The notes below the pieces were generated by a model. The model saw only the letters and a program-made list of their open reading frames with translations. It searched no databases and had not been told where the DNA came from. Shown piece after piece: positions 1 through 20,529 of a stretch of 64,000 nucleotides of DNA (position 1 is its first letter; each line of letters begins with the position of its first letter). The position numbers were made by a program, and so were the translations under genes. Location of the stretch: the NCBI GenBank assembly GCA_963765125.1, contig CAVXUZ010000005.1:263837-327836 (forward strand), in the 5' to 3' direction. This stretch comes from an uncultured candidate division WWE3 bacterium (GTDB taxonomy: Bacteria; Patescibacteriota; WWE3; UBA101185; UBA10185).

Positions 1-1184
1 TTATCTATAGCGATGCCTAATGCGTCTTCATCTGATATTTTATTATTATCCTCACTAAGCATTGTGATTATTTGCGTCTCAGTCAGATCGCGAATTTCTT
101 TTTTATTTATGAATGTATTAAGTACTTTTTTTGCATCACTAGCTTTTGCAACAATTAATTTTGCTTTTTTTATATCTTCTAGTGTTAAAGCCTCAATTGC
201 TCTATTTTTTAGTTCGTTACCTATCTCAAAACTATTTAATATTTCTAATTTTTTGAATGAGTCGGTGTTTTTACTAAGCGCGTTAAACTCCTTTGAAAGT
301 TCTTTAAAATAAGCTTGATCAAACTCCATTGGCGGGATATCGGGTTCTGGAAAGTATCTATAATCTTGTGCGTTTTCTTTTGTTCTCTGGCTTACTGTAC
401 TATTTGTTGACTCTGTAAACCCTCTATTTTCTTGTATAGGCATTTCTCCTTTTTCGAGTAGTTCTCTTTGTCTTTTAATCTCTGCCAATACGGCCTTTTC
501 CATAAATTTAAATGAGTTAATGTTTTTTATTTCAACCTTGTATTTTGGAAGTTCGTTTTTAGCCCTCTGCTCGTCGGTTCTCAGCGAAATGTTTGGTTCT
601 AGCCTAAGTTGGCCCTTTTCCATGTCTGCTTCGCCAACACCGTATTCACGAACTACTTTTTGGACGTACTTTGCAAACTCTACCGCTTCGTCAATATCTT
701 CAAATATTGGTTTTGTTACAACCTCTATTAACGGCATCGAGCTCATATTGAAATCGATAAGAGTTTTGCCACCTTCGTGAATTGACTTAGCTGTGTCTTC
801 TTCTAAATGAATTCTGTCTAATAAAGCCTCTTTTCCAGAAGTTAACAGCATCTTGCCGCCTACACAAAACGGCTGTTTATATTGGCTGATTTGATATCCT
901 TTTGGCAAATCTGGGTAAAAATAATGTTTACGATCAAATTTTGAGTTCTCATTCAAATGACAACCAAAAACCATTCCCAAAAGTTGTGTTTTTCTTACAG
1001 CCTCTTCGTTAGGCACCGGCAACGCACCCGGCAAACCTAAACAAATAGGGCAAGTTACGGTATTTGGCTTTGCGTTATAAATATCTGTGCTACATCTGCA
1101 AAACATTTTTTTTGATGTATCAACATGCACGTGAATCTCTAAACCTAAAACTAAATTGTATTTACCTAATATCTCTTTATTCAT
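1..1184 (-). CDS. gatB: Asp-tRNA(Asn)/Glu-tRNA(Gln) amidotransferase subunit B (GatB), C-terminally truncated by the window edge
   Basis: Hand translation from the ATG at 1184..1182 gives MNKEILGKYNLVLGLEIHVHVDTSKKMFCRCS...HYFYPDLPKGYQISQ...YRYFPEPDIPPMEF. These are GatB hallmark motifs. The frame is still open at position 1. The start overlaps the upstream ORF by 8 nt. Confidence 0.85.
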   Translation of the reverse strand, partial: MNKEILGKYNLVLGLEIHVHVDTSKKMFCRCSTDIYNAKPNTVTCPICLGLPGALPVPNEEAVRKTQLLGMVFGCHLNENSKFDRKHYFYPDLPKGYQISQYKQPFCVGGKMLLTSGKEALLDRIHLEEDTAKSIHEGGKTLIDFNMSSMPLIEVVTKPIFEDIDEAVEFAKYVQKVVREYGVGEADMEKGQLRLEPNISLRTDEQRAKNELPKYKVEIKNINSFKFMEKAVLAEIKRQRELLEKGEMPIQENRGFTESTNSTVSQRTKENAQDYRYFPEPDIPPMEFDQAYFKELSKEFNALSKNTDSFKKLEILNSFEIGNELKNRAIEALTLEDIKKAKLIVAKASDAKKVLNTFINKKEIRDLTETQIITMLSEDNNKISDEDALGIAID

Positions 1185-1455
1185 CTTGCTTATCCTTTAT
1201 TATTTGAAGATCTTTACAGTCATAGGGCATTCCTAAACAATACGAGTCACCAACGCCTATTGCATTAGTACCTTTGGGAGTTGCCATTACCCCACCGCAT
1301 TTACATTCACGCAGGGTTCCTTCACGATATATTCGCGCAGGTTTAGGAAATATAAACGCCGCGATGGCAATAAAAGCAAATAATGCCAACAGTGGTCCGA
1401 TCAGATAAGTAAAATCAGACTTTCTATACTTTTTTATTTCTTGCGGTGTAATCAT
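1177..1455 (-). CDS. hypothetical small membrane protein (92 aa), one TM helix plus a Cys-rich C-terminus, inside the gat operon
   Basis: ORF-track ORF with a hydrophobic segment LIGPLLALFAFIAIAAFIF and a CKCGG...C...C motif. Its start shares 1 nt with the upstream ORF stop and its end overlaps the gatB start. Confidence 0.4.
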   Translation of the reverse strand: MITPQEIKKYRKSDFTYLIGPLLALFAFIAIAAFIFPKPARIYREGTLRECKCGGVMATPKGTNAIGVGDSYCLGMPYDCKDLQIIKDKQDE

Positions 1456-1847
1456 TAAACTCTTACTCCTAAAGTATTTACTGCTTTTCTAAACACTTCT
1501 ATTCCCGTAATTAGCATTGATTGGATTGGCTCGTAACCGCTTTCGTGTACTAACGCGTTTCTCATCTTGTGAGCCGCCCAAATTCTATCGTAATCTTCTT
1601 TTGTAAAAAGATCTTTTGCGTTTTTTAGTCTTTCTCCCATATTTTCACCAAAAACCTTGTCTCGTAATACGTTATCTAACGTTTTATCGGCAGATAAAAG
1701 AGCCTGTCTTAACTGGCTTGGACCTTTGCTTCTCACTAAAATTCCGATGTTATTCCACTCTTGTATAACGTTATCTCTAGTTGCGGGTTTTACTATCGAG
1801 CCGTTGGCGCCAATATTCTCAAATAACTTAAACAAATTAAAAACCAT
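1455..1847 (-). CDS. hypothetical 130-aa protein with an HEPN-like Rx4H motif (AAHKMRNALVHESGY), inside the gat operon
   Basis: The ORF is translationally coupled between gatA and gatB. The C-proximal R-N-A-L-V-H motif resembles the HEPN/HepT Rx4HxY signature. There is no other recognisable similarity. Confidence 0.4.
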   Translation of the reverse strand: MVFNLFKLFENIGANGSIVKPATRDNVIQEWNNIGILVRSKGPSQLRQALLSADKTLDNVLRDKVFGENMGERLKNAKDLFTKEDYDRIWAAHKMRNALVHESGYEPIQSMLITGIEVFRKAVNTLGVRV

Positions 1848-1848
1848 T

Positions 1849-2046
1849 TTATTTAAATATCTTTCTTACAATTAAGACTATTAACAAGCCTCCTAATGCG
1901 TGAGATAAGAACTGCACAAACGCGGGAAGCTCCGATGGTTTCATTCCAAACATTGCTGCAATTAAATAATTTCCAAGCGACACTGCTGCGATTATAAATA
2001 ATGCCAGCATTACTAACCCAAATATACTTGCAGGATTCATTTTCAT
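1849..2046 (-). CDS. hypothetical small membrane protein (65 aa, two predicted TM helices)
   Basis: Hydrophobic ORF whose start overlaps the gatA stop by 4 nt (ATGA-type overlap). Confidence 0.35.
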   Translation of the reverse strand: MKMNPASIFGLVMLALFIIAAVSLGNYLIAAMFGMKPSELPAFVQFLSHALGGLLIVLIVRKIFK

Positions 2047-3509
2047 ATTTTTATTTTATATATCTCCTTATGATATTTTGTAACTTTTTGATAGGCCATC
2101 GCTGCTGCGATTACCTTTGCTTCGTCAAACATATTTCCCATTATTTGTACACCTACCGGCAAACCATTTGAAAAACCGCAAGGTACTGAAGCACCGGTAA
2201 TTCCTGCTATTGAGCTTTGCTCTGCTAACACGTCCATTAATTCACCAAACATAGACGATTTCTGCGATTCTCCTAACGGTAACGCTACACACGGCATAGT
2301 GGGTCCAATTATTAGATCGACTTTTTTAAATGCGTTTTTCAAATCATCAATCAAAAGTGTTCTTACCTTTTGAGCTTTTGAATAATATGCGTCGTAGTAA
2401 CCAGAACTTAGAGTATACGCTCCCAGCATCATACGTTTTTTTGCTTCGTATCCAAAGTCTGTTCGTGGCCCGCCATACCTTATACCGTCAAGGCGAGAAA
2501 GATTAGAAGAAACTTCGGATCTTTGTAAGATTGTGTACACAGCTATTGAATATTTTGGGTCAATGAGATCTATGTCTATTATTTCTGCGCCGAGGTCTTT
2601 AAATACCTCTAAACTTTCTTCTACGTAACGTTTTACATCGTACTCTAGTTCGATTTCAAAATATGACTTCGGTTTGCCAATTTTTATACCCTTCATACTA
2701 ATTTTTTCTGCGTCTTTTAGATAATTCTTTACGGGTTCTTCTGAACTTGTAGCATCTCTAAAATCTTTACCTGCCACAACTTCTAAAACTAATGCTGCGT
2801 CCCTCATGGTTTTTGTAAGTGGACCTGGAGAATCAGTTGATGAAGCCATAGCAACAACACCATAACGGCTAACTCTGCCGTAAGTTGGTTTTAAGCCAGA
2901 AATACCAGACCATGCAGCGGGACCCCTAATACTCCCTGCGGTTTCACTTCCCATTGCGAAAATGCACATATTTGCTGCAACAGCGGCGGCTGAACCTCCT
3001 GAAGAGCCTCCCGGAGATCTTTTTAAATCAAAAGGATTTGCTGTTTTGAAAAAGTCTGATGTTTCTGTGCTCGAACCATGCGCAAATGCATCCATGTTTG
3101 TCTTTCCTAGAAGAACCGCGCCTGCTAGGTTTAACCTGTCAGTTACAGTCGATTCAAACGGAGGAACATAATCTTTTAATATTTTTGAGGACGCTGTTGT
3201 TTTAATACCTTTTGTAGAATAGTTATCTTTTGCTGCATAGGGCAAACCAAGAAGCGGGTATTTATCCCAAGCTTTTTCTTTTAATGACTTTATTACTGAG
3301 TCTGCCCACGAAGCTCTTTCTAAGGCAAATTCGTCGGTTACAGTGACAAAAGCTTTTACTTTGCTGTCTAATGCTTTTATGGTGTCTAAACAGGCGATTG
3401 TTAGCTCTGTCGAGGTGAATTTGCCCTCTTTGAGACCTTTTATTGATTCTTCGATTGTTAATTCATTAAGCTTTTTCATACTATCTTTCAAAAACTGCTT
3501 TTGTACCAA
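2043..3509 (-). CDS. gatA: Glu-tRNA(Gln) amidotransferase subunit A (GatA, amidase family)
   Basis: Amidase signature GGSSGGSAAAVAA. The length and position after gatC fit. The real start may be the internal MKKLNELTIEE at 3479. Confidence 0.9.
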   Translation of the reverse strand: MVQKQFLKDSMKKLNELTIEESIKGLKEGKFTSTELTIACLDTIKALDSKVKAFVTVTDEFALERASWADSVIKSLKEKAWDKYPLLGLPYAAKDNYSTKGIKTTASSKILKDYVPPFESTVTDRLNLAGAVLLGKTNMDAFAHGSSTETSDFFKTANPFDLKRSPGGSSGGSAAAVAANMCIFAMGSETAGSIRGPAAWSGISGLKPTYGRVSRYGVVAMASSTDSPGPLTKTMRDAALVLEVVAGKDFRDATSSEEPVKNYLKDAEKISMKGIKIGKPKSYFEIELEYDVKRYVEESLEVFKDLGAEIIDIDLIDPKYSIAVYTILQRSEVSSNLSRLDGIRYGGPRTDFGYEAKKRMMLGAYTLSSGYYDAYYSKAQKVRTLLIDDLKNAFKKVDLIIGPTMPCVALPLGESQKSSMFGELMDVLAEQSSIAGITGASVPCGFSNGLPVGVQIMGNMFDEAKVIAAAMAYQKVTKYHKEIYKIKI

Positions 3510-3783
3510 AATAATCTTTAATTCTCTCCCCCGTGCTAGATAAAGCCTCTTCTTTTGTTAAAGTCTCACTTTTTTCTTCTTCTTTTTGGAAAACGTTGGT
3601 TAAACCTGTAACTTGAAATGTTTCGGTAACTTTTGATGTGTCTAACTCTTCTAAAACCTTGATGTAGTCAATCGTCTCAGTTAATTTTTCACCAAGAGAG
3701 TCTTGCTCATCCTCAGAAAGCTTTAAATTACTTAGATTTGCTATGTATAAAACCTCTTCTCTTGATAATTTCTTAGTATTCAT
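3481..3783 (-). CDS. gatC: Glu-tRNA(Gln) amidotransferase subunit C (GatC)
   Basis: 100-aa acidic protein immediately upstream of gatA. The N-terminal LSREEVLYIANLSNLKLSEDE is typical of GatC. Confidence 0.8.
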   Translation of the reverse strand: MNTKKLSREEVLYIANLSNLKLSEDEQDSLGEKLTETIDYIKVLEELDTSKVTETFQVTGLTNVFQKEEEKSETLTKEEALSSTGERIKDYFGTKAVFER

Positions 3784-3804
3784 CTTATGTAATATAGCAC
3801 ACAG

Positions 3805-4689
3805 CTACATCGACTCTAAACGCCTTATGCGCTCTTCTATCGGTGGGTGCGTGTCAAAAAGTTTAAAAAACGACTGCATACGCAGGGGGTGGACAATGTA
3901 CATATGGGCTGTCGCACCATTAGCCTCTTCTAGGATCTGTGTGTCGTGGGCTAACTTTCTTAAAGCGTCAGCTAAACCCTCTGGATACCTTGTTAACAGC
4001 GCGGCGGTAGAATCAGCGAGAAATTCCCTTTTTCGACTAATTAGTGCCTTAATTAGAGCCGCAACTAGTGGACTTAGGATGATTAGGACTATACCTATAA
4101 GCACAAATGATCCGCCAAAGCTTGATCTTCTATCTCTACGCCCAAAAAATAATCCACGGGTAAAAAAATCGGCCACAAGAGTAATGGTACCTACCATAAC
4201 AGCCACAACAGTCATAACTAGTACATCGTAATTTTGTATATGCGATAGCTCGTGTGCAACTACACCCTCAAGTTCTCTTTTTTCTAGATGTTCAACTATT
4301 CCTCTAGTAAAGCAAATTACGCTGTGTTCAGGGTTTCGCCCCGTTGCAAATGCGTTCATTGCAGAATCATCAATCATATAAATCTGAGGTTTCTTTAAGC
4401 CAGAAGCGATGCATAGGTTGTCTACCAAATTGTGAAGTTCGGGATTTGCCTCATACTCCACCTTCTTTGCGCTTGAAATCATGAGAACAATTTTGTCTGA
4501 GTAATAGTAAGAAACAACGCTAGAAATGACTGCGTACACTGCTGCTACTACAATAAAATAATAGCCAGCTCCTGGTTCATACCATTCACCAATAAAATAT
4601 CCTAAAAATGAGATAAATATAATTGTCAAAAAGATGATAACTGCCGTATCGCGCTTATTGTTACTAATATGATTGTAGATATTTGGCAT
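3805..4689 (-). CDS. htpX: M48-family zinc metalloprotease HtpX
   Basis: HELSH zinc-binding motif, multiple TM helices, and adjacency to lemA. Confidence 0.85.
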   Translation of the reverse strand: MPNIYNHISNNKRDTAVIIFLTIIFISFLGYFIGEWYEPGAGYYFIVVAAVYAVISSVVSYYYSDKIVLMISSAKKVEYEANPELHNLVDNLCIASGLKKPQIYMIDDSAMNAFATGRNPEHSVICFTRGIVEHLEKRELEGVVAHELSHIQNYDVLVMTVVAVMVGTITLVADFFTRGLFFGRRDRRSSFGGSFVLIGIVLIILSPLVAALIKALISRKREFLADSTAALLTRYPEGLADALRKLAHDTQILEEANGATAHMYIVHPLRMQSFFKLFDTHPPIEERIRRLESM

Positions 4690-4779
4690 AACTGTATTTT
4701 AGCCTTTTATGCCTAAAGTTGTAAGGTTAAAAAAAGGACCCGCCGAAACGAGCCCTTTCTTTTTCATTTACTAATGATT

Positions 4780-5343
4780 TTATTGTTTTGCAGAAAAATC
4801 GACTTTGACGGCTTCTCTTTCTTCAGGAGCAGCTTCAAAAAATTCTTTTTCTTTAAATCCCATAATCATTGCAACCAAGTTTGATGGAACCATCACAATT
4901 TTTTGGTTGAAATCTCTGACCACGCTGTTATAAAACTGTCTTGAATAAGCGACCTTATCTTCAGTGTCTGAGAGCTCTCTTTGCAGGTTTAAAAATCCCT
5001 CTTGAGCTTTAAGATCTGGATAAGCCTCGGCAATAGCAAAAAGGCTCTTTAACGCGCCTGTTAGCATAGTATCAGCATCACCAGCCTCTTTTGGACTGTT
5101 TGCACTCATTAAAGCTGATCTTGCTTTTGTAACATTTTCGAAGACCTCTTTCTCATGAGTTGCGTAACCTTTAACGGTTTCCACAATGTTCGGTATCAAA
5201 TCAACTCTTCTTTTTAATTGAACGTCGATCTGACTCCACGCCTCTTGAATTTTTACTTTAAGAGATTGTAGAGCGTTAAAGATGCCTACTGCGTAAAGTA
5301 AAATTCCCGCAATAACTAAAATTGGTAAAAGTGTAAGATTCAT
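4780..5343 (-). CDS. lemA: LemA family protein
   Basis: N-terminal TM helix plus the conserved LemA core (QEAWSQIDVQLKRRVDLIPN), in the classic lemA-htpX pairing. Confidence 0.8.
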   Translation of the reverse strand: MNLTLLPILVIAGILLYAVGIFNALQSLKVKIQEAWSQIDVQLKRRVDLIPNIVETVKGYATHEKEVFENVTKARSALMSANSPKEAGDADTMLTGALKSLFAIAEAYPDLKAQEGFLNLQRELSDTEDKVAYSRQFYNSVVRDFNQKIVMVPSNLVAMIMGFKEKEFFEAAPEEREAVKVDFSAKQ

Positions 5344-7608: not shown

Positions 7609-7685
7609 GGGGTGGTAGCTCAGCTGGTTAGAGCGCCTGCCTGTCACGTAGGAGGTCGCGGGTTCGAGTCCCGTCCATCCCGCCA
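7609..7685 (+). tRNA. tRNA-Asp (anticodon GTC), CCA encoded
   Basis: Hand-folded cloverleaf: acceptor GGGGTGG/CCATCCC, anticodon stem CCTGC/GTAGG, loop CTGTCAC, T-arm GCGGG-TTCGAGT-CCCGT. Length 77 nt. Confidence 0.85.
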
Positions 7686-8521: not shown

Positions 8522-8596
8522 GCGGGTGTGGCTTAGTGGTAAAGCGTCTCCTTCCCAAGGAGAAGACCGCGGGTTCGAGTCCCGTCACCCGCTCCA
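8522..8596 (+). tRNA. tRNA-Gly (anticodon CCC), CCA encoded
   Basis: Hand-folded: acceptor GCGGGTG/CACCCGC, anticodon stem TCTCC/GGAGA, loop TTCCCAA, T-arm GCGGG-TTCGAGT-CCCGT. Length 75 nt. Confidence 0.85.
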
Positions 8597-13777: not shown

Positions 13778-13853
13778 GCCAGTGTAGCTCAGTCGGTAGA
13801 GCAAGCCCTTCGTAAGGGTTAGGTCGACGGTTCGATTCCGTCCACTGGCTCCA
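13778..13853 (+). tRNA. tRNA-Thr (anticodon CGT), CCA encoded
   Basis: Hand-folded: acceptor GCCAGTG/CACTGGC, anticodon stem AGCCC/GGGTT, loop TTCGTAA, T-arm GACGG-TTCGATT-CCGTC. Length 76 nt. Confidence 0.85.
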
Positions 13854-20340: not shown

Positions 20341-20417
20341 ACTTTTTGGTGGGCTCAACAGGATTCGAACCTGTGACCTCTCGAATGTGAATCGAACGCT
20401 CTAACCGGCTGAGCTAT
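20341..20417 (-). tRNA. tRNA-Val (anticodon CAC), CCA encoded
   Basis: The reverse complement folds: acceptor GGGCTCA/TGAGCCC, anticodon stem TTCGA/TCGAG, loop TTCACAT, T-arm ACAGG-TTCGAAT-CCTGT. Length 77 nt. Confidence 0.8.
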
Positions 20418-20529
20418 GAGCCCAAACATTGAACCAAAACAAATTTTACCCCATCACCAAACAAAAAACACTCTGTCTTGGCCTAAAAAACGTAATGCTA
20501 TTTTACATCATTTGCTCTAAAATTATTCT

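Follow-up and report, generated by a model that had tools for sequence, protein, structure and literature searches.

A HEPN-fold protein encoded between gatA and gatB in WWE3 and other Patescibacteria

In most bacteria, Gln-tRNAGln and/or Asn-tRNAAsn can be made only through the tRNA-dependent amidotransferase GatCAB, which has been treated as a closed three-subunit enzyme. In a 64,000-nucleotide stretch of DNA from an uncultured candidate division WWE3 bacterium (contig CAVXUZ010000005.1 of assembly GCA_963765125.1, positions 263,837 to 327,836 of the forward strand; hereafter the window), three small genes, o65, o130 and o92, lie between gatA and gatB. What do these genes encode, and do they belong to the operon? 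The answer centres on the middle gene: we regard it as close to certain that the o130 protein has a HEPN fold and that its gene is a conserved member of the gatCAB operon. The genes of the cluster and two elements within o130 are as follows, in window coordinates.

3481-3783, minus strand: gatC, 100 aa (Pfam GatC 7.5e-10 and TIGR00135)
2043-3479, minus strand: gatA, 478 aa from the ATG at 3479 (Pfam Amidase 8e-121, TIGR00132)
1849-2046, minus strand: o65, a 65-aa two-transmembrane (two-TM) hairpin protein with two hydrophobic segments
1455-1847, minus strand: o130, the 130-aa HEPN-fold protein at the core of the finding
1821-1847, minus strand: codons for the o130 N-terminal hydrophobic peptide MVFNLFKLF; M-x-x-F-x-x-L-F is conserved in WWE3 homologues
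1542-1571, minus strand: predicted HEPN active-site codons, H93-K-M-R96-N97-A-L-V-H101-E102, at the end of helix 3
1177-1455, minus strand: o92, a 92-aa single-pass membrane protein with a four-Cys C-terminal domain
1-1184, minus strand: gatB, N-terminal 394 codons, the gene continuing past the window start (Pfam GatB_N 1.7e-97, NF004012)

A sequence-only reading of this DNA had described three small open reading frames (ORFs) coupled at every junction, and all four junctions can indeed be read in the sequence. The ATG of o65 lies on the gatA stop codon, the two genes having ATGA in common at 2043-2046; a 1-nt gap at 1848 separates o65 from o130; o130 and o92 have one nucleotide in common, within TAATG at 1453-1457; and the o92 stop overlaps the gatB ATG (1184-1182) by 8 nt. 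Further upstream, the mechanical open frame of gatA reaches a TTG at 3509 and overlaps gatC; the ATG at 3479, which leaves a 1-nt gap after gatC, is preferred by the gene callers of the source contig and by relatives. No terminator-like site was found on the minus strand inside the gat cluster, and a promoter-like site is located upstream of gatC, at 3820-3791 of the minus strand.

The assignment of o130 to the HEPN fold is primarily structural. The AlphaFold2 model, which was computed from an alignment of 65 sequences (A1), is confident, with a predicted local distance difference test score (pLDDT) of 90.1 and a predicted template modelling score (pTM) of 0.82. In a Foldseek comparison with solved structures, the best few matches have probabilities of 0.97-1.0 and template modelling scores of about 0.65. 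HEPN domains are defined by an Rx4-6H motif that ends helix 3, with a polar residue (N, D or H) right after the arginine (PMC3710099). The o130 model comprises helices 21-40, 43-64, 83-101 and 109-125 and a short insert helix, 70-76. Helix 83-101 closes with R96-N97-A-L-V-H101, in which the polar Asn next to the Arg is the arrangement classical for catalysis, and helix 43-64 carries D58-N-V-L-R62 at the place of the acidic helix-2 motif (typically Ex3[KR]), with Asp rather than Glu. The order of the helices and the position of the motif both agree with the definition of PMC3710099. The HEPN-like character that the sequence-only reading had attributed to the protein is thereby borne out by fold, by motif position and, as described next, by motif conservation.

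Homologues of o130 are numerous. A word-index search yielded 178, all from WWE3 or Patescibacteria, while a profile searched exhaustively against 1.84 billion cluster representatives yielded 2,188 at E<=1e-3 and 684 at E<=1e-10; counts of motifs and N-termini given below for representatives refer to the best 150. Conservation was analyzed in A1 and in a second alignment of 122 diverse members (A2), and genomic context in 160 fetched loci, comprising 80 from species-representative genomes (185 matched) and 80 metagenome loci, the query for the latter having been built from distant, TM-bearing members. Across A2, residues W90, H93, R96, N97 and H101 are invariant, and D54, D58, G67, G71, R73, L74, Y86 and K94 are conserved in at least 90% of members; in A1, the motif residues H93, R96, N97 and H101 are likewise invariant, as is D58. 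The family also has a strongly conserved insert, G-x-T-M-G-E-R-L. The pattern H-x-x-R-N-x3-H is present in every full-length HEPN copy of the fetched loci (154/154), and H-K-x-R-N-x3-H(-E) is kept in 148 of the 150 best representatives.

The resemblance to HepT that had been proposed for the peptide AAHKMRNALVHESGY (o130 residues 91-105) fares less well. The spacing here is H101-E-S-G-Y105, so that o130 does not have the Rx4HxY motif with the AMPylated tyrosine of HepT, and Y105, which is Y or F within WWE3, is not conserved in the consensus of the wider family. As a rule, HEPN domains that keep the Rx4-6H motif are RNases (PMC3710099), and the retention of the motif therefore predicts an active metal-independent endoribonuclease for the o130 family. 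Judged from the motif, such activity is somewhat more probable than its absence.

Established profile libraries do not capture this family. Scans of o65, o130 and o92 against Pfam, NCBIfam, PADLOC and PHROG gave no match at threshold, and neither of the two families to which the sequence-only reading had pointed, HEPN (PF05168) and DUF86 (PF01934), is listed in the scans of o130 and its relatives. Among the 122 members of A2, sub-threshold Pfam matches were to Swt1-like (PF18731; 8 members), RiboL-PSP (PF18735; 5), Cthe_2314 (PF18730; 5) and pEK499_p136 (3). The first three, counted as the only models with repeated weak matches, reach best E values of 0.009-0.025, well below gathering scores, and come from different contexts, namely eukaryotic RNA surveillance and conflict systems. 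When PDB sequences were searched with profiles of A1 and A2, no HEPN match appeared, only weak and probably compositional matches to Avr3a and bS20; the resemblance of the A2 profile to bS20 chains (E about 0.009) covers residues ~26-90, that is, the first two helices, and is probably of a compositional or helical nature. In sum, o130 belongs to a large family of small HEPN proteins that has no matching model in the libraries searched.

Is the position between gatA and gatB a peculiarity of this genome? When the gat genes of the fetched loci were detected by tblastn with the Gat proteins of the window, the order gatA..HEPN..gatB was found in 128/160 loci, from WWE3, Saccharimonadia-labelled genomes and others. 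Another 20/160 are cut by a contig end yet consistent with this order, and in 4/160 both flanks are too short to judge. One or both gat genes were undetected in the remaining 8/160, which have at least one flank of at least 1.5 kb (L058, L082, L083, L084, L086, L099, L109 and L148, with L109 almost lacking an upstream flank). In 87/141 loci, no more than 20 nt separate the HEPN stop from the expected gatB start, and the two often overlap; the linkage persists where GatB is only about 40% identical to that of the window and the wider synteny differs. Given its place between gatA and gatB, usually overlapping or abutting gatB, the HEPN protein is made together with the amidotransferase.

The HEPN gene has also diverged in step with its neighbors. 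Pairwise HEPN distances correlate with those of GatB (Mantel r 0.88, p 0.001; Spearman 0.81) and of GatA (0.78), to be compared with 0.86 between GatA and GatB. This agreement argues for vertical co-inheritance rather than repeated insertion, and the HEPN gene is thus an ancient, vertically inherited member of the gatCAB operon across deep Patescibacteria lineages. The view that a trio of genes had been inserted into gatCAB must consequently be given up: in most loci the HEPN gene stands alone between gatA and gatB and is an old member of the operon, whereas o65 is found in some lineages and o92 in a narrow WWE3 subclade. As to the check proposed by the sequence-only reading, whether relatives keep three genes at this place, the HEPN gene is kept (in the 128 loci above), while the full trio is confined to that small subclade.

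That all three small ORFs are real, conserved genes, as had been supposed, follows from the nearest relative recovered, locus L161, which has the same layout (lemA, htpX, gatC, gatA, 66 aa, 131 aa, 92 aa, gatB, polA) and matches the window in the geometry of its junctions. Saturation of synonymous sites even between these two led us to compare the proportions of nonsynonymous (pN) and synonymous (pS) differences and not to compute dN/dS ratios. Across the genes, pS is 0.73-0.90 (o65 0.90, o92 0.74), whereas pN is 0.14 for o130, 0.22 for gatB, 0.26 for gatA and o65, and 0.27 for gatC and o92. With pN (0.14-0.27 for the three small genes) far below saturated pS, o65, o130 and o92 are all under purifying selection, and in this pair o130 is more constrained than GatA, GatB and GatC.

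The families of the two accessory genes are much narrower than that of o130, and word-index homology searches with o65 and o92 returned only the query itself; their relatives were taken from the fetched loci. By hydropathy, o65 has two TM segments and o92 has one. An o65-like ORF of 60-70 aa with two TM segments stands ahead of the HEPN gene in 23 loci. Among loci with gatA upstream, such a gene precedes 22/86 HEPN proteins without a TM segment but only 1/51 of those with one (Fisher p = 2e-4). This near restriction to TM-less HEPNs fits a role of o65 in anchoring the HEPN in trans, and we infer that o65 is a candidate membrane anchor of this kind. An o92-type gene follows the HEPN gene in only 8 loci (L001, L002, L003, L004, L013, L114, L161 and L162, of which L114 closely resembles L003), which makes the trio specific to a small WWE3 subclade. 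In the o92 alignment (A4), FPKP, C51, C53, C73 and C80 are invariant; the single-sequence AlphaFold2 model of o92 is unusable (pLDDT 57).

A connection to the membrane is also suggested by the HEPN proteins themselves. A TM-like hydrophobic segment, mostly starting from the first residues, is predicted by hydropathy in 73 of the 150 best representatives, while another 23 show an amphipathic hydrophobic helix with [LW]P[FWY][RK] at its end. The latter, which fall within P0137-P0265, share the helix type G-hydrophobic-W-W-L-I-x-[LW]-P-[FWY]-[RK]. Since there is essentially no extracytoplasmic part, the N-terminal helix looks like an anchor, not a sensor. The o130 protein of the window has no TM helix, only the 9-residue N-terminal hydrophobic peptide, modeled with low pLDDT; this peptide is a possible membrane- or partner-binding element. 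Other WWE3 proteins likewise keep just such a peptide, and in more distant relatives a TM helix or an amphipathic [LW]P[FWY] helix occupies its place.

Other genes join the cluster in particular lineages. In 17 WWE3 loci, a short-chain dehydrogenase (SDR) gene of ~230 aa lies between the HEPN gene and gatB (for example L005:4731-5420), and the adjacency of HEPN and SDR genes is recurrent, since it is found not only in these 17 gat loci but also as recF-HEPN-SDR in L084 and L086. In L040, the gene for a 587-aa aspartyl-tRNA synthetase (3184-4947) lies between gatA and the HEPN gene, which puts the enzyme that would supply the Asp-tRNA substrate of the Asn branch into the same cluster.

Homologues outside gat operons are found in five loci. 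The HEPN gene lies between recF and an SDR gene in L084:2899-5170 and L086:2490-4781, behind genes for GtrA and an MBL-fold hydrolase in L099, and between a cyclophilin gene and the gene for ribosomal protein S1 in L083. In L082 (1040-2019), the last 4 nt of the gene for a 188-aa class-I glutamine amidotransferase (PF00117) are shared with the HEPN gene (1603-2019), which here too comes after a glutaminase gene, just as elsewhere it comes after gatA.

Upstream of gatC in the window are two further genes, both named from Pfam matches in the gene tables.

3805-4689, minus strand: htpX-like M48 peptidase gene
4780-5343, minus strand: lemA

The htpX-like gene and lemA recur in 54 and 57 related loci, respectively. 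They are conserved upstream in WWE3 and possibly belong to the same transcription unit as the gat genes. The WWE3 gat cluster sits inside a frozen block, lemA-htpX-gatC-gatA-HEPN-gatB-polA, which is seen in 54-68 related loci and not in distant lineages. The window also contains four tRNA genes, Asp-GTC 7609-7685, Gly-CCC 8522-8596, Thr-CGT 13778-13853 (+) and Val-CAC 20347-20423 (-); Rfam and ARAGORN found only these over the window, with no gene for tRNAGln or tRNAAsn near the gat cluster.

WWE3 GatB proteins are short, with 427-447 aa (L001:5628-6971, L006:5365-6666, L029:5358-6680 and L064:5347-6630), and match the profile of the GatB_Yqey tail only from position 45-83 on; the full tail is present in the distant HEPN-bearing lineages L079 and L134. 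We considered that the HEPN protein might substitute for a lost GatB tail and rejected this idea, because GatB_Yqey is kept and is full-length in distant HEPN-bearing lineages.

Genetic data that bear on the family exist for the Saccharibacterium Southlakia epibionticum. Its gene SEML1_0535 encodes a 139-aa 'hypothetical protein' and overlaps gatA (SEML1_0536) by 4 nt and gatB (SEML1_0534) by 1 nt (PMC10633639). In the supplementary tables of that transposon sequencing (Tn-seq) study, it is listed as a core, Patescibacteria-enriched family (Table S1), is called GD/GD/ES (growth-defective, then essential) with normalised reads falling from 127 to 5.9 to 2.8 over three time points, and has no Pfam match and the ProtNLM name 'DUF4145' (Table S2). 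Residues 26-135 are assigned by DPAM to an ECOD 1wty-type 'nucleotidyltransferase substrate binding' domain, i.e. a HEPN domain (PMC10633639). Judged by position, size and fold rather than by sequence alignment, SEML1_0535 is likely the Saccharibacteria counterpart of o130.

How is o130 best explained? The R-N-x3-H motif, D-x3-R/K and the insert G-x-T-M-G-E-R-L are all kept, which argues for an endoribonuclease that needs no metal, or failing that for a module that binds RNA. The reading that we favor, at a little under even odds, is that o130 is a membrane-associated housekeeping HEPN RNase or RNA-binding partner of GatCAB and not a toxin; a direct functional or physical link of the HEPN protein to GatCAB or to tRNA is possible, if rather doubtful. 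The HEPN would most likely form a dimer and work on the cytoplasmic side of the membrane, attached in most lineages through its own N-terminal TM or amphipathic helix and in the window's WWE3 clade through the short hydrophobic N-terminal peptide, aided by the two-TM o65, while o92 would be a later, subclade-specific membrane accessory. Its role would most likely be a housekeeping one tied to GatCAB, such as the handling, checking or cleaving of tRNAGln and tRNAAsn or their mischarged forms, or else the processing of the gat transcript. More speculatively, GatCAB could be a four-component amidotransferase, with a membrane-anchored, active HEPN RNase as its stoichiometric partner and with o65 and o92 as dedicated adaptors in some WWE3, an arrangement that we consider unlikely. 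The HEPN might then serve as a fidelity checkpoint, destroying mischarged Glu-tRNAGln or Asp-tRNAAsn that escapes transamidation, or it might place indirect Gln/Asn-tRNA synthesis at the membrane.

Several observations weigh against a GatCAB-tied, membrane-associated HEPN RNase. No HEPN model of Pfam or NCBIfam matches o130 or its 65 + 122 relatives at threshold, and TM segments were called with a simple hydropathy window instead of a dedicated predictor. At depth, the mean p-distance of the HEPN core (0.55) exceeds those of GatA (0.47) and GatB (0.44). The SDR gene, aspS, o65 and o92 can each part the HEPN gene from gatA or gatB, and the homologues in L082, L083, L084, L086 and L099, which lie outside gat operons, indicate that an adjacent gatCAB is apparently dispensable. 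The Tn-seq phenotype of SEML1_0535 may reflect polarity on gatB. Finally, while the gene geometry, fold, motif conservation, operon linkage, co-divergence and hydrophobic N-termini are observed, it is by inference that we describe the protein as an active RNase that forms dimers, sits at the membrane and associates with GatCAB, and the same holds for its substrate.

Some of these points would be accommodated if the HEPN were an independent housekeeping membrane endoribonuclease of general RNA decay or processing, in the manner of the N-terminally anchored RNase Y, that only shares an old transcription unit with gatCAB and is linked to the amidotransferase neither physically nor through its substrate. 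The intact motif and an N-terminal anchor without an extracellular domain suit such an enzyme, as do homologues that persist outside gat beside recF/SDR, S1 or glutaminase genes and the location of the WWE3 gat cluster within a lemA-htpX-gat-polA block of functionally unrelated genes. It would nevertheless leave unexplained why the gene occupies the place between gatA and gatB, and not an edge of the operon, in 128/160 loci even where the wider synteny is lost, why start/stop overlap with gatB is frequent, and why aspS joins the cluster in L040; we judge it a minority option, with perhaps a modest share of the likelihood. The operon position and translational coupling, both typical of complex subunits, together with the hydrophobic N-termini, could also belong to a non-catalytic adaptor of HEPN fold that keeps GatCAB or the transamidosome tethered to the membrane or assists in holding the tRNA, and many HEPN domains, for example the substrate-binding domains of nucleotidyltransferases, are indeed non-nuclease (PMC3710099). 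Non-catalytic HEPNs, however, usually lose Rx4-6H (PMC3710099), whereas R, N and H are invariant here in all copies examined, and some homologues have no adjacent gatCAB. Such an adaptor is distinctly improbable.

The sequence-only reading had offered a toxin-like role, which can be put more fully as a selfish or defensive HEPN toxin (a HepT-like toxin-antitoxin or abortive infection module) lodged in an essential operon, with o65 and/or o92 as its immunity partners. HepT toxins are among the closest solved structures, and HEPN domains are common in conflict systems (PMC3710099). The locus itself speaks another language: there is no adjacent MNT or other antitoxin gene, the neighbors being gatA, gatB, small membrane proteins, SDR or aspS; PADLOC and PHROG gave no match, tblastn found none in phage genomes, and structural matches in BFVD are weak; and the HepT tyrosine of Rx4HxY is absent and not conserved in the family. 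Moreover, the divergence of the gene parallels that of GatA and GatB, tiny genomes maintain it under strong purifying selection, and insertions into its Southlakia counterpart become depleted instead of being tolerated. The lack of an antitoxin partner and of defence or phage matches, the co-divergence with the operon, i.e. vertical inheritance, and the purifying selection leave the toxin reading disfavored and very improbable.

The minimal single-domain HEPNs of known structure (HEPN-T AF0298, 2hsb; HepT SO_3166, 5yep/7bxo; 7ae2; YutE, 1ylm) share only 7-14% identity with o130. Compared with minimal HEPN/HepT proteins, o130 lacks both an MNT nucleotidyltransferase partner and a conserved HxY tyrosine, has a hydrophobic N-terminus, and is encoded in a vertically inherited housekeeping operon, whereas those are encoded in mobile toxin-antitoxin or defence loci. 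Another group to compare is that of the membrane-associated DUF4145-like HEPNs, whose TM helix carries a 'WP' signature (Anantharaman et al. 2013, PMC3710099). As in these, many members of the o130 family are predicted to begin with one TM or hydrophobic helix that leads into a cytoplasmic HEPN domain bearing a motif of R-N-x3-H type, and some relatives end the helix in [LW]P[FWY], recalling the 'WP' signature (WP itself occurs within the first 60 residues of 7/150 representatives, [LW]P[FWY] in 23/150). In contrast to them, o130 of the window has no TM helix, and no linkage to gat is reported in PMC3710099. The DUF4145 model itself (PF13643) did not match o130, P0101 or six further members in hmmscan at E<=10, and the families listed for the scans of A1 and A2 do not include it; the 'DUF4145' label on the UniRef entry P0101 is a ProtNLM name, not a Pfam match.

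Two other systems offer analogies. GatF (PF20977) of the fungal mitochondrial GatFAB is a clade-restricted small extra subunit and thus a precedent in functional logic only: it replaces GatC, which is retained in the window, and it has neither a HEPN fold nor a nuclease motif. RNase Y of Firmicutes is an N-terminally membrane-anchored endoribonuclease of the KH + HD type. By analogy, the TM-bearing relatives of o130 would resemble it in carrying a cytoplasmic RNase-type domain on a TM helix that starts at residue 1; the catalytic domain of RNase Y is unrelated, however, and the protein is much larger and not linked to gatCAB.

In the literature, we found no report of gatCAB operons in which a HEPN gene is conserved as a component, and the finding seems new. 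The sole trace is the undiscussed entry for SEML1_0535 in the supplementary tables of PMC10633639; the gene is absent from the main text of that paper. HEPN domains and the membrane-anchored DUF4145-like group are already known (PMC3710099), and what is new is an uncurated family and its housekeeping, translation-linked context.

A fourth gene with an intact HEPN site thus stays between gatA and gatB across hundreds of species of the ultra-small Patescibacteria, a major radiation of bacteria, and its counterpart appears to be fitness-critical in Southlakia, the only one of them that is genetically tractable. These findings suggest that indirect tRNA aminoacylation includes a step of RNA handling or quality control that has gone unrecognised. 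Since Southlakia epibionticum is naturally competent and seems to have the gene, this hypothesis can be put to a direct test. At a minimum, the family is a conserved, Patescibacteria-enriched predicted ribonuclease in organisms whose RNA metabolism is almost unknown, and it would be a clear case of a HEPN domain at work in core housekeeping rather than in conflict systems.

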